From contig JARDVH010000097.1 of the NCBI GenBank assembly GCA_030324005.1, forward strand, positions 61,245,278 to 61,309,277: DNA of 64,000 bases, given 5' to 3'. How positions within the stretch are numbered: the stretch's first letter is position 1; every line of letters begins with the position of its first letter. The notes below the pieces were generated by a model. It was not told the DNA's origin and made no database searches. It saw only the letters and a program-made list of their open reading frames with translations. The DNA is from Negaprion brevirostris (lineage: Eukaryota). Below are positions 16,266 to 50,770 of this stretch, one piece after another. A program made the position numbers and the translations under genes.

Positions 16266-16376
16266 GTATGGGTTTGGTTTGCTTGACGCTGGCCGAATGC
16301 TGAAGGCAGCCATTAAGTGGAAAAACCTGGGTCCTCAGAGAAAGTGTGTGGTTAATTATGGAGCTCACCTGAAGAA
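16266..16376 (+). CDS. Internal exon of a kexin/furin-family proprotein convertase (end of the S8 catalytic domain and linker)
   Basis: Acceptor gtttttgttcaatAG, donor GTaagt; 111 bp, phase 2 to 2. Translates YGFGLLDAGRMLKAAIKWKNLGPQRKCVVNYGAHLK, matching the furin-family motif YGYGLLDAG...W..V.PQRKC. Not in the supplied ORF track. Confidence 0.93.
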
Positions 16377-16569
16377 GTAAGTTCTTTGGTTTCTCAAAAC
16401 ATAGAATCATAGAATGTCACAGCATGGAAGGAGGCCATTTAACCTGTCATGTCCATATCGTCTGTCTGTAAGAGGCAAAGGAAAATACTGGTTCAGCATC
16501 AACTGAATTATTGTGTTCAATTCCTGGCACCACACTTTAGGAAGACAGTGAAGGCTTCAGAAAGAAACT

Positions 16570-17100
16570 ACCTCAGTTAGTTCCCCCCTTCCCCTCTTTC
16601 CCCATAGTACTGCATTTCTTTTTCCTTTGGTGCTTATCCAATTCTCTTTTGAAAACCACAATTAAAGCTGCCTCCACCACACTTCTAGGCAGTGCATTCC
16701 AGATCCTAACCATCCCCAGCATAAAATCATTTTTCCTCACCTTGCCATTTGCCAATCATGTAATAACAGTGTCTTCTGGCACTTCATCCTTCAGCCAACA
16801 GGAACAGTTTCACTCTATCATCCCTAACTGTCTTAAAACCTCATGACATTGAACACTTTTATCAGATTTACCATCAAAACCTTCTGTTCTCCAAGGAGAA
16901 TAGCACCAGCTTCTCCATCTAGCCACATTGCTAGGTCCCTCACCCTTGGAACTAGTCTTGTAATTTCTTTCTGCACTCTTTCTGAAGCCTTCACAGTCTT
17001 CCTAAGGTGCGGAGCCAGGAATTGAACACAATAATCCAGTTGATGCTGAACCAGTGTTTTCCTTGCTTTTGTACCACATGCCTCTCTTCATAAAGTCCAG
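16570..17100 (-). mobile_element. Degenerate CR1 LINE 3' fragment
   Basis: ORF 16573-16755(-) MVRIWNALPRSVVEA....FKRELDKH is the typical CR1 C-terminus. Confidence 0.8.
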
Positions 17101-17110
17101 GATCTACAAT

Positions 17111-17392
17111 GGCACAGTGATTAGCACTGCTGCCTTACTGCACCAGAGACTCGGGTTAGGTCGCTATCCATGCAGAGTCTGCACATTCTCCCTGTGTCTG
17201 CTTGGGTTTCCTCTGGGTACTCCAGTTTCCTCCCACAGTTCAAAAGATGTGCTGGTGAGGTGCATTGGCCATGCTAAATTCTCCCTCATTGTACCCAAAC
17301 AGCCACTGGAGTGTGTCGACTTGGGGATTTTCACAATAACTTCATTGCAGTGTTAATGTGCACGTACTTGTGACACTAATAAATAAACTTTA
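17111..17392 (+). mobile_element. tRNA-derived V-type SINE (alternative tail)
   Basis: ggcacagtgattagcactgctgcct head, tttcctcccacagttcaaaagatgtgc core, and ggggattttcac...taataaataaac tail. Confidence 0.88.
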
Positions 17393-17479
17393 AACTTTTC
17401 CCATTTACCTTTAACAAATTGATGCTGGCTTTCTTTAATTAATTTGCATATTCAACACTGGTGAGGGTGATGATTCCTC

Positions 17480-46630: not shown

Positions 46631-47929
46631 TTTCTGCTTGGCAACATCTGAGCCAACCAGAGTTGCCCAGCCAACCACTCAGAAACCTTTTCTCCTGTTG
46701 TATAATTCATGATGGTTTGAAACTTGGCATTCTTGCATTTGTCTTCATGAGTACAAGACAAAAAGCTTCGACAATATCTTCAGCAATATTCAGATGATTC
46801 TTACTGTCATATGGTTGGACACTGTAATTTATGATGTTTGAGACCTTTCAAGCTGAACCAGTAAAATGATCAAGTTTTTTTTTGCCTGAAGAAGTGTATA
46901 AATACATCAGCCTTATTTCTTACGTTCACATGCCAAGCTCCACCATGTCTAAGATTGGGTATGTTCATTGAACTCATGTTAATTGCCCAATTGCCCACGA
47001 TCCTCAATCGGATTTTGTAAGACCTTTGTCTGATTCTTTGATTTTGGCTCTATTTAACTTCATCGTTCTCTGCTACTTTCAATGTCTGACATGCAAGTAC
47101 TGTATCCCACTAGACTGGTGCTTCAGCCTCAGGTATGTCTCATGTTGCTTATGACACAGCCTCAGCACTCCCCATTGGACCAAAATGAAACTCACAAGAT
47201 CAATCTATGGCCCACTAAGAAGATTTGCAATTCACAGTAAACCTAAATCAGGGCCAGGATTTAATGGCACTGTTGTGATGAGTATCCCCCCAGAGGATGG
47301 ATGTGGCAAGCCATTTAATTCTCCATTCAGTTCAGCAGGATTATAATATCCCTTTGGGCAGGAGGGACCATGACATCCTGGCCCAGGTACACTGTTGTGT
47401 AAGTTACCAATCAGACTACGTGGGAACAGTCTCTGTGTAGTTAAGACTGTTCCGATGTAGTCTGTTCCCAGGCATCCATTACTGTACAATTGCAGAATAT
47501 AAGATCTTTGCTTTCCCAGAATGTTCTTTACTTTATTTCAAGCAGTTCTCTATCAATAAATGGACCAATTATGTACTATCTTATTTCAAAGATTACATTT
47601 GAAATGCTTCTTGGTTCTTCCAAAATGCTCTATTTCTCACAACGCTATCATTTGCTTTCCGTAGCATTTTGCAATGCTACATGTCTTATTCTCTAAACAT
47701 TTATAATCTCTCTAGGATACCTATTACCAGTTCCATTTCATAAGGTAGCAAGTTCAATTTGGAAAAAGCATTTTCCTTTTTTTTTTGCCTTTTATCTAGT
47801 AGTAATTTTAAAGCCTCATCAAAACCACAGCAGTCAGTGGTGTTCTGCATTACTGCTTTGATTAAGGGAGCCCCAAAGTTTCATTTTTCATTTCTCTTTA
47901 TTCCACATCTTTAGAACCTACAGGAATAA

Positions 47930-48515
47930 AACTGAATGGACCATTTGGCATCGACGTAGGCACCAAAAGCAACAACTGCGCTCAGTCCTACCAACACTGC
48001 ATAATCCTCCTTGCTAACACCTAGGGGCTTGTGAGTTATTGGGAGAGCTCTCCCATAGACTAGTCAAGCAAAAGCCTGATATAGTCATATTCACGCCACC
48101 ACATCACCATCCTTGCATATGTCTAGACCCATTAGAGGCTACGCTACAGTGGTATATGGTTGGGAGGGCAGTGCCCTGGGAGTCATCAACATTGACTCTG
48201 GATCCCACAGAGTCTCATGGCATCAGGTCAAACATGAGAAAGAAAACCTCCTGCTGATTACCACCAACACACCCTTCACCACCTGAGGAATCATTACTCT
48301 TTCAGTCGAACATCACTTGGAAGAAGCAATGAGGGTGACAAGGACATAGAATGGACTTTGCGATGTGGGACTTGAATGTCCATTACCAAGAGTGGCTCAA
48401 TAGAACTACAGATGGCCAAGTCCTGAAGGGCATATCATCCAAACAGGGTCTGTGCAGACTGTGAGGGAACCAACAAGAGGGAAAAGCATACTTGACCTCA
48501 CCCTCACCAATGTAA
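47930..48515 (+). mobile_element. LINE endonuclease remnant
   Basis: GELSHRLVKQKPDIV (ORF 48039), GDLNVH.QEWL and REPTRGK..LDL.LTN are APE-domain motifs. Confidence 0.7.
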
Positions 48516-49314
48516 GTATTATAGCACTGTCATCCTCATCAATCTAACTGGATGACAGTACTATCAAGTAGCACGTGCACTTTCTCCCAGAATCTGAAGG
48601 TCTCTATCCACCCTGCTTGAACTCTGATCCCTGCATGGTTCCTTCAAAGACTTCAGCTCTAATACATTATGACAGCACATCATCAAGCTTGCTTGTGGCA
48701 GTTGGATGGGAAACCCAGAAGTCCGATGCAATTGCAATGGTAGCTTTAAAAGTCAGTGAGAAAAGCATTGCTGAAATTTTACGATTCCATATGATTTGCC
48801 AGACTCCCCTTTATCAGCAGGTCAGAGAGGTAAAATTCATCCCTTTTTCAATGTATCCTTTTCATCTCTCGCCATTTTTATAACCACTCTGAATGGGTTT
48901 GCCCATTGTTTAGTTATATTTGCATTCATAAACCTTCAGATTACATATCCTTGCATCCTGTCATGATGCAATTGTTGAATGATCTTGAAGTCCTCCAGAG
49001 TCTTTGATGCCACAGCGAAAATTATTTATTTTTATGTGTTGCAGCAAATACTATCTCTTACCTTTGTTGGCTCAACCCAGCCTCTCTTCATCTATTACAA
49101 TTCTTCATTTGAGTGCTCTCTCTGGTAAGAGAATAAATCCTTACATCTCTTCATTGCTATAACAACGTTCAGAAAAGTCTGTTTCCATTTTACTAACACC
49201 TCAACAAATCTTAATCCCTTGTAAAACTCAGACATGTTCATGACTTGAATATGATCTGCCAAGGCAATCCCAGCACTCTTTCTTGCACTCACAAATAAGC
49301 TATGAGATAGGTGG

Positions 49315-50157
49315 GGGAGAGGGGGAATTTTCAGCCCTGTGCGTGCATGTGCAAATCACGTTATGGCTAGAGAATCTTGTGAGAGGGGTCAAACGTCATT
49401 TGCAGCAGGAAGAATTCATTTTGAGATTCTCTCCACCCGCAGCTGGCATAATAATCTGGTTCATGCCCAGTGAGTGTGTGAACCAGATTAGGATATTTAA
49501 ATCCGCATTTGAAGATGCATTTCCAGATTTTAGCAGGATTCACCTTGCTCTCGGTATTCACTGACCCAGCGGCACAACAGAAAGCTGGCAGGAATCACTG
49601 CTGGTCTCTACAAACAAAAGCCAGGCATGATGACCATGCTGGGGGGGCTCGGAGACCATTGAAGCCCCTGAGTAGTTAAGGACATGGCTGGAAAATGCCC
49701 TAGTGCTGCCCCCTAGCAGTGCCAACTTCACACTGCCAGCTTGGCACTGCCAAGGGAAGGGGGCTGAAGGGGGGCATGGGGGGCCTCAAGAGGAGGTGCA
49801 TCTTTGATGATCCTAGAGTGGGGTTTTTAATTACTTGGGGGAGTCCGCAATGATGGGGTGNNNNNNNNNNGTGGGCGGCGAGCGAGGGGGGGGATCTCTA
49901 CCAGTGACTGGGAGGGAGAGAGGGGTTTACATGGGTGTCCGGACAAAAGGCATCCTGAACTCTCAGCAGCCAGCCATGCCGGTGGTGTCTTTAGGTCCCA
50001 CACTTGTCTTTCCAGGTGGGAATCACCCCAAGCTCCAAAAAAAATGTCAAAGTGTGGGTGGATTGCCGTCTAAATTAAATCAACCCACCCGGCTGCAATT
50101 GCACTGCTTTTCCCACCAGAGACAACAGTTCAAAAAATTTTTTGGAGAACTGCACCC
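49315..50157. mobile_element. GC-rich Harbinger-like non-autonomous element
   Basis: Right end TTTTTTGGAGAACTGCACCC parallels the right end of 8901-9963; similar ggca/tgcc-rich interior. Confidence 0.55.
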
Positions 50158-50640
50158 AGAAGGTTTGTCCATTTTTCACATCTACTTAGGCCTCTGTGAT
50201 CTCTGCCCCGCTGAGCTTTTTTCTCTAATTTCTCCTAAGTTTCAAATCTGGTCCAGTGGACCTTTCCTGATCTCAAAATCGTAGAACTTTATCTCCCTCA
50301 ATCTTTCTTTCCTCTACAGTTCAGCATATGAACTGGCCATTGACTTCCAAGTTTCTTTCTTGCTGTTTCGAAGTTGATTCTGAAGTACATCTCCACTCTT
50401 CATCCTGGTTGCTGTGAGTATGTTTCATAAATGACCAGATTGTGAGAAGTTTTGTGCTATGAACTGTGACCGGTGGAAATTGAATTCAGACTACCCAAAC
50501 ACCCAGAACTCTTGCAAACAGAGGACAGAGAAGGCTTTCATCTCATCAGTCTGAGCTAGGTTTCAACCCGGGTTTCAAGGTTGAAAAGACAAAGTTCGAA
50601 CTCACCATGATTTCAATAAGAACTGTATTTTTTCTTTCAG

Positions 50641-50770
50641 ATTGCAGATCGTGCCAATACTGTCAAAGCATGTGAGAGACGTGGGGATGAAACAACAGCA
50701 GGATCCATCACCAAGTACAAGATAACACTGTGGGGAACCTACAGGCATGGGGTCCCCAAAAGGGAGGAAG
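50641..50770 (+). CDS. Exon completing the convertase P-domain (3' end uncertain: donor after 50770, or in-frame stop at 50776-50778)
   Basis: Strong acceptor tttttttctttcAG, phase 0. Encodes IADRANTVKACERRGDETTAGSITKYKITLWGTYRHGVPKREE, which aligns with the P-domain end (furin-like GTLTKFTLVLYGT). Followed by AAG|GTacat, or by read-through GGT ACA TGA. Confidence 0.88.

Follow-up and report, generated by a model that had tools for sequence, protein, structure and literature searches.

Proprotein convertases of the kexin-like family are synthesized as zymogens, which remove their own prodomain, bind Ca2+ and cut precursor proteins after a basic residue within the secretory pathway; the P domain typical of the family stabilizes the catalytic domain. 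The vertebrate set is usually taught as PCSK1-PCSK7 plus two outliers. A further group, PCSKX, was defined by Tao, Cheng, Song, Weisblat and Kuo (bioRxiv 10.1101/802215), with members in Nematostella, spiralians, sea urchin and amphioxus. In its available sections, this preprint reports PCSKX as lost in vertebrates, tunicates and ecdysozoans, the vertebrates in its tree being human, chicken and Xenopus only (all four lamprey models were dropped). We analyzed a 64,000-nucleotide stretch of the genome of the shark Negaprion brevirostris (assembly GCA_030324005.1, contig JARDVH010000097.1, positions 61,245,278 to 61,309,277 of the forward strand; referred to below as the window). It contains four exons which, with a probability of roughly 0.8, are the 3′ exons, for the end of the catalytic domain and for the P domain, of a carcharhiniform shark PCSKX gene, designated here PCSKX-A, encoding a kexin-like convertase. 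Judged by its sequence, this gene appears intact, and its presence would contradict the published loss of PCSKX in vertebrates.

The gene is a vertebrate member of a known, uncharacterized group, has an ordinary fold and is already deposited in databases under an uninformative name. A preliminary description of the same DNA had suggested an ancient extra convertase lineage; the lineage is not a novel one, since the available text of the preprint already names the group PCSKX from invertebrates. In the open-access PMC and bioRxiv literature (subscription journals were outside this scope), no gene of a fish, shark or other vertebrate was found to be assigned to PCSKX, and the name was confined to one relevant paper. 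The literature examined contained no biochemically characterized enzyme of this group. The accessible parts of two further papers are restricted to mammals (PMC8553125) or mention pcsk1 and pcsk2 as the sole convertases (PMC12714231).

Exons of the convertase gene and its closest relatives

The four exons (Table 1) are flanked by AG/GT, follow phases 2, 2, 0 and 0, and have donors matching 7 or 8 of 9 consensus positions. When spliced, they form a 521-bp (base pair) stop-free sequence encoding 173 amino acids (aa). Using shark proteins as tblastn queries, each exon was matched separately (E 3e-15 to 9e-35), collinearly and on one strand, which excludes chance. Coordinates, intron lengths, phases and splicing in silico agree with the preliminary description, and all of the P-domain motifs quoted there were located in the spliced peptide.

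The exons encode, respectively, (i) the last part of the subtilisin-like domain, containing the YGFG motif, and a linker with the first P-domain cysteine, in phase 2 at both start and end, (ii) the start of the P domain up to LEHVQ, including the second cysteine and a sequon for N-glycosylation, (iii) the P-domain core (CRGDL, SPxGT, WTFMTVH and WGExP), and (iv) a 10-residue insert in a P-domain loop, which carries a clade-specific cysteine, followed by the final strand of the P domain (LWGT) and the beginning of a C-terminal tail. Exon 3 alone matches the Pfam domain P_proprotein (Table 1) and furin (E 2e-13), and its top matches among solved structures are furin and Kex2. The exons show two hallmarks of the kexin/furin-type proprotein convertases (S8B), a P domain located C-terminally to the S8 domain and an RGD-type motif (CRGDL). 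The LWGT motif, previously described as terminal, indeed closes the P domain, but it was rejected as the C-terminus of the protein: the orthologues run on for 120-150 aa, and a phase-1 donor agreeing with the consensus at 7 of 9 positions lies at 50771. Read-through past this donor would meet a stop three residues on, just after the P domain, which yields a speculative short form. The intron between exons 1 and 2 presumably shares its position and phase with an intron of PCSK1, in which case only some of the introns would be lineage-specific.

Table 1. Positions of the convertase gene features within the window
Feature	Position	Strand	Details
Coding exon 1	16266..16376	+	111 bp; tblastn E 2e-18 versus Mustelus model
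Intron 1	16377..22839	+	6463 bp, GT-AG, phase 2
Coding exon 2	22840..22933	+	94 bp; tblastn E 3e-15
Intron 2	22934..28641	+	5708 bp, GT-AG, phase 0
Coding exon 3	28642..28827	+	186 bp; Pfam PF01483 E 1.3e-17
Intron 3	28828..50640	+	21813 bp, GT-AG, phase 0; contains two short N gaps
Coding exon 4	50641..50770	+	130 bp; tblastn E 5e-21; phase-1 donor at end
Splice donor	50771..50778	+	phase 1; TGA 50776-50778 if read through

No further credible exon of the gene was found at 1-16265 or 50771-64000 by tblastn and the scoring of 579 candidate acceptors; therefore the flanking introns exceed 16 kilobases (kb) upstream and 13 kb downstream, or an exon lies inside a gap of undetermined bases (N gap). 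The window has nine such gaps of 10-703 bp (at 2162, 9479, 10906, 31780, 49861, 51028, 54226, 56387 and 63325), within any of which a short flanking exon could sit.

Of 28 candidates in a search with exon 3, 10 proteins were retrieved; they come from sharks and one sawfish, and each bears the automatic name "PC3-like endoprotease variant B". The spliced peptide aligns without gaps to the Mustelus model over 173 aa (93% identity) and to four other shark models (70-80% identity), also across the junctions. Its identity is 66% to the sawfish protein, 59% to that of Callorhinchus, 44-50% to another set of proteins from sharks, rays and fishes, and 35-42% to canonical convertases (35-36% to loach and snake PCSK7). 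Such identities suggest a carcharhiniform shark as the probable host. Full-length models of the gene are available from more than 10 sharks and rays. In Mustelus, the gene is represented by two database models on different scaffolds (P0001 and P0095), an N-terminal and a C-terminal half, whose sequences abut. A search of the ESM Atlas returned generic convertase clusters only.

The shark and ray models named "PC3-like endoprotease variant B" are direct orthologues of the window gene. A resemblance to such loci in fishes had been pointed out beforehand; it holds for the shark models, but the ray-finned loci are paralogue B and not orthologues. The name, which is automatic and also applied to paralogue B, presumably traces to an enzyme of Hydra, and the Hydra sequences fall inside the same wider tree clade. 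Among the matches listed in our searches, fish paralogue-B models are spread over at least five misleading names, e.g. "PCSK4-like" and "neuroendocrine convertase 1-like".

Phylogenetic position and distribution of the group

An exploratory tree was built from 252 of 264 proteins (12 were left out for short coverage), and a final tree from 66 chosen sequences and 481 columns under LG+C20 with posterior mean site frequencies (PMSF); supports are given as ultrafast bootstrap/SH-aLRT. The anchors were fish furin, gecko PCSK4, bird PCSK5, paddlefish PCSK6-like, tarpon PCSK1, echinoderm PC2 and invertebrate PCSK7, to which partial loach and snake PCSK7 sequences were added. The window peptide groups with Mustelus (100/98) within a chondrichthyan paralogue A clade that includes Callorhinchus (100/97). 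Paralogue B unites the shark and ray B proteins with all 7 ray-finned sequences (100/100). Hagfish (97/90), Styela (99/96), amphioxus (97/88) and ambulacrarians (94/90) join successively outward, and the whole group, with spiralians and cnidarians, is supported at 94/86, the internal branching among these last being open. The order of the clades mirrors the animal tree, and the group as a whole is separate from PCSK1, PC2, furin/PCSK4, PCSK5/6 and PCSK7. The trees place the peptide outside the known ortholog clades, in an ancient lineage spanning sharks to cnidarians, as the preliminary description had suggested. We regard it as very likely that the window gene is a member of PCSKX-A among the shark orthologues.

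Approximately unbiased (AU) tests on 38 sequences (LG+G4) rejected all 10 alternative placements, with p values of 2e-3 to 1e-71. Paralogue A with PCSK4 was rejected at p 3e-5, and all vertebrate members with furin/PCSK4 at p 2e-42. For paralogue A and for all vertebrate members, respectively, the p values were 9e-6 and 2e-45 with PCSK1, and 6e-4 and 2e-3 with PCSK7, which gave the weakest rejection among the all-member pairings. All vertebrate members were likewise separated from PCSK5/6 (p 8e-45) and from PC2 (p 1e-71, with echinoderm PC2 anchors only). A character independent of the tree points the same way: the residue at position 364 of furin is Phe in 56/56 sequences of the group and His in 17/17 canonical ones. 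Two further alternatives, devised after the tree was known, concerned the grouping of A, B and the ray-finned proteins. The view that the ray-finned loci are orthologues of the window gene (A with ray-finned sequences, without B) and the view that A and B arose by a shark-only duplication (A with B alone) were both rejected at p 3e-6.

The clade can be identified with PCSKX because it contains four species of Tao et al., in so far as the preprint's available sections list them (Nematostella vectensis, Lingula anatina, Crassostrea gigas and Branchiostoma floridae), as well as echinoderms, and no canonical gene. Like PCSKX as described in those sections, it is a kexin-like clade outside PCSK1, 2, 7, furin and PCSK5/6; unlike in that report, its members include hagfish, chimaera, sharks, rays, ray-finned fishes and Styela.

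Several points weigh against this assignment. The deepest node of the group (94/86) is just under strong support, vertebrate PCSK2 is missing from the final tree and vertebrate PCSK7 is represented there by partial sequences only, and the identification as PCSKX is by membership and elimination rather than by the gene identifiers of Tao et al. The clade might be another ancient group outside PCSK1-7, e.g. one tied to the orphan Nematostella gene which the preprint, in the same sections, describes with hydra and coral orthologues; our cnidarian sequences also include Hydra orthologues, and the cnidarian, spiralian and deuterostome subgroups meet at an open node. However, the trees of Tao et al., as far as they are available, leave only one non-canonical group with spiralian, echinoderm and amphioxus genes, and in the present clade the sequences from these same animals share Phe364, which makes a group other than PCSKX improbable. 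We consider it highly improbable that the gene is a fast-evolving canonical orthologue (PCSK4, PCSK7, PCSK1, PCSK2, furin or PCSK5/6). The names carried by paralogue-B fish models and a soluble architecture resembling that of PCSK1 could be cited in its favor, but the low identity to canonical proteins, the rejection of every AU pairing and the short branches speak against it, as does the tarpon Megalops cyprinoides, which carries a true PCSK1 together with a member of the window group.

The locus could also be a recent pseudogene or a truncated copy, broken outside the window. The catalytic exons of this shark do lie there, no neighboring exon was found in the 16 kb upstream and the 13 kb downstream, and the intactness of the gene is therefore deduced from its relatives, which counts against a complete gene. 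Nevertheless, the reading frames and splice sites of the four exons are intact, all four cysteines are present, and the terminal branch is short (0.027) and equal to that of Mustelus, whose N-terminal model has all of the catalytic motifs. With full-length models in so many sharks and rays, we judge a broken copy to be quite improbable, and an intact PCSKX-A gene in this shark to be very likely on comparative sequence grounds.

Jawed vertebrates have two predicted PCSKX-type paralogues, A and B. Paralogue A (the window gene) was found only in cartilaginous fishes (sharks, rays and chimaeras), while paralogue B is shared between sharks and rays on the one hand and ray-finned fishes, among them medaka, stickleback, fugu and cichlids, on the other. 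Paralogue-B proteins of note are P0022, P0024, P0099, P0104, P0112, P0113 and P0120, together with the ray-finned sequences. In 4/4 species with data, A and B are located on sequences of unequal length, apparently different chromosomes, which suggests that they may be a whole-genome-duplication pair. The A+B node has a support of 94/75 in the 66-sequence tree and is otherwise arranged in another tree, the order of the hagfish split and the duplication differing between them. Two teleost-like full open reading frames (ORFs) of paralogue B (753 aa and 788 aa) occupy contigs of 2425 bp and 3138 bp, respectively; these contigs are scarcely longer than the ORFs, and spliced transcripts are therefore implied.

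Of 7998 candidates scored in a search with the core of the basking shark protein, 944 matched, and 120 of these matches were listed. Sharks and rays fall into two identity bands in the list, which also comprises sturgeon, paddlefish, gar, bowfin, reedfish and approximately 70 teleost sequences, as well as hagfish, Styela, amphioxus, Lingula, Hydra and Nematostella; one nematode match is absent from the tree on account of its short coverage. Tetrapods, lungfish, coelacanth, lamprey and cypriniforms were represented by 0 of the 111 named sequences among these listed matches. Zebrafish may accordingly lack paralogue B, as 0 of the 120 listed matches are cypriniform. A search for shorter proteins (62 matches among 393 candidates) added three Callorhinchus models.

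The retention of PCSKX in sharks, hagfish and many fishes, with two copies in jawed vertebrates, changes the ancestral vertebrate convertase count and shifts the loss to somewhere on the lineage toward the sampled tetrapods. The absence from mammals proposed earlier relies, for human as for chicken and Xenopus, on bioRxiv 802215, but loss in all tetrapods is unproven because one record, P0143 (718 aa), branches outside all 11 ray-finned sequences (95/94). The convertase part of this record is paralogue B, and its unrelated N-terminal part resembles a retroelement. Nesting of P0143 with sturgeons was not rejected (p 0.056). The record may derive from a lobe-finned fish or an amphibian.

A cichlid survey (PMC4992253) describes, in its available portion, a "PCSKL" without furin-like Cys repeats, set aside as incomplete or as an assembly error. 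It is probable that this sequence is paralogue B, a member of which occurs in Astatotilapia calliptera. For studies of precursor processing in fishes and of furin or PC1/2 knockouts (medaka, stickleback, cichlids), paralogue B is an overlooked candidate enzyme concealed under misleading names.

Two members with both extra cysteines described below (P0092 and P0127) were identified in Styela clava, contrary to the reported loss in the vertebrate-tunicate ancestor. Convertases of a lobster, a scorpion, a millipede and a crab (P0202, P0226, P0136 and P0346) form one clade; Phe364 is present in the three of them that were aligned, which group with PCSKX at a support of 89/79. An effect of sampling may thus also underlie the loss reported for ecdysozoans.

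Predicted protein and substrate specificity

The shark orthologues have intact catalytic exons and an intact C-terminal tail, both of which lie outside the window in N. brevirostris. They consist of a hydrophobic N-terminus that serves as the predicted signal peptide, a prodomain (present in the basking shark model), an S8 domain and a P domain. Residues are numbered after furin, as given in the available part of PMC12649860. The catalytic Asp, His and Ser and the oxyanion Asn are conserved in 12/12 aligned paralogue-A orthologues, and the S1-pocket and calcium acids Asp258, Asp301, Asp306 and Glu331, also encoded outside the window, are invariant. An AlphaFold model of the basking shark orthologue, calculated with a 73-sequence alignment (a single-sequence run was unusable, with a predicted local distance difference test (pLDDT) score of 33), had a pLDDT of 84.4 and overlaid furin with a root-mean-square deviation of 2.0 Å and a target TM-score of 0.96.

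The orthologues share with furin (PCSK3; PDB 5JMO, 4OMC) and PCSK4 the fold, the catalytic triad, the oxyanion Asn and the S1/calcium acids. The core identity to furin is approximately 45%, and furin Glu230, Glu257, Asp191, Arg193 and His364 are replaced. Furin and PCSK4 have Cys-rich and transmembrane regions, whereas neither was detected after the P domain in the parsed orthologue tails. The number of Cys in these tails is 0-1, and their hydropathy peaks below 0.7 (versus 14 Cys and 2.7-3.1 in furin/PCSK4). In the group as a whole, the peak is at most 0.89 in 35/35 parsed tails (6/41 were unparsed), compared with 2.69 in furin and 3.13 in PCSK4. As no membrane helix was found in any of the 35, the enzyme is predicted to be soluble, like PC1/3. 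PCSK5/6 differ by their long Cys-rich tail, and PCSK2 by its oxyanion Asp, in contrast to the Asn of all orthologues of the window gene.

PCSK1 resembles the window group in its solubility, its helical tail and the loss of acids at positions 230 and 257, but it forms a separate clade and has His364 instead of Phe. Sorting of PC1/3 to granules depends on its C-terminal helix. In the basking shark model, two tail helices are predicted (680-707, pLDDT >90), the motif of which is kept from sharks to hagfish. A profile built from 18 vertebrate tails was run on the 255 of 389 proteins with a parsable tail, and scored at least 5 bits on 90/130 Phe-type tails and on none of the 100 His-type tails, i.e. 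those with the PCSK1-like state of position 364. A likeness between vertebrate and invertebrate tail motifs, noticed by eye, was unsupported: 0 invertebrate sequences are among the profile matches listed.

The cysteine of CRGDL and that of the loop insert occur together in 37/37 vertebrate and tunicate sequences and in 0/36 others, of which 33 have neither and 3 have one. Vertebrate and tunicate members thus differ from the remaining PCSKX proteins in two added P-domain cysteines, their shared derived mark, and in a longer loop. The two residues, both encoded in the window, probably form an additional P-domain disulfide. However, the pair arose once, and its co-occurrence reflects shared descent rather than independent covariation, which counts against the disulfide. 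In the amphioxus members P0094, P0098, P0101 and P0102, a polybasic furin-type site lies in the P-domain loop that carries the cysteine insert in vertebrates.

Recognition of P3-P6 has been tied to Glu230 and Glu257, and that of P1′ to His364 and Thr365 (PMC2820236). In paralogue A, Lys or Arg is found at 257 in 12/12, at 230 in 10/12 and at 365 in 12/12 sequences, and the position of Asp191 is non-acidic in 12/12. The propeptide site of the same proteins reads H-[ED]-[VLI]-E-K-R in 11/12 (the twelfth is without an N-terminus), whereas ray-finned paralogue B has Arg at P4 of this site in 20/20.

PCSKX-A would lack a membrane anchor and act as a soluble convertase, dependent on Ca2+ and specific for Arg. 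As in other members of the family, its zymogen would shed the prodomain and then cut after Arg in the secretory pathway. Strict P1-Arg specificity should be retained, because Asp258, Asp306 and Glu331 are kept. The replacement of Glu230 and Glu257 by Lys/Arg and the enzyme's own propeptide site suggest a preference for K-R sites with acidic residues at P3/P5 and an aliphatic one at P4, in which the acidic P3 and P5 residues would face basic 257 and 230. This model of acid-flanked dibasic sites is tentative, its chances lying somewhat short of even. The predicted reversed-charge pocket offers a direct test of the role of positions 230 and 257 in convertase specificity.

Alternatively, PCSKX-A may be a broadly expressed, furin-like constitutive convertase with an R-X-X-R preference, in which the charge changes merely weaken selectivity at P5/P6, as in PC1/3 and PC2; this alternative concerns the mechanism and leaves the orthology as it is. 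Several observations favor this and weigh against an acid-flanked preference. All 12 paralogue-A sequences keep Tyr308 and the acidic P4 partners Glu236 and Asp/Glu264, so that P4 Arg is arguably still accepted; the second propeptide site is polybasic; and ray-finned paralogue B has a basic 257 in 19/20 sequences together with an ordinary P4 Arg. PC1 and PC2 are likewise without acids at 230 and 257 (PMC2820236), and the broad expression of the leech gene (Hro-pcskx), reported in the available sections of bioRxiv 802215, suits a furin-like role more than a granule-restricted one. On the other hand, 230 and 257 have turned basic, beyond neutral, P4 Arg is lost and P3 and P5 are acidic in 11/11 complete A propeptide sites, while the B proteins and invertebrates mostly retain P4 Arg; moreover, the membrane anchor is absent. 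The furin-like explanation deserves real weight, without being probable. The acid-flanked model can be embedded in a broader scenario: early jawed vertebrates would have possessed two kexin-like convertases beyond the seven of mammals, a whole-genome-duplication pair derived from PCSKX, of which A was kept by cartilaginous fishes alone, reversed the charge of the furin P3-P6 surface, co-evolved an acidic self-cleavage site and came to serve shark precursors poorly cut by other convertases. As a whole, this scenario is speculative and rather doubtful.

Other features of the window

A search of the sequencing runs with exon 3 found 15 runs, of which 0 were recorded as RNA, a result that is uninformative either way. 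An Rfam search of the window gave 0 matches, and a second gene was not seen there. Self-repeats total 3321 bases of the window, and overlap 0/4 of the convertase exons. Two open stretches, at 12097-12549 (- strand) and 43699-44001 (+ strand), resemble decayed pieces of the reverse transcriptase of a long interspersed nuclear element (LINE).

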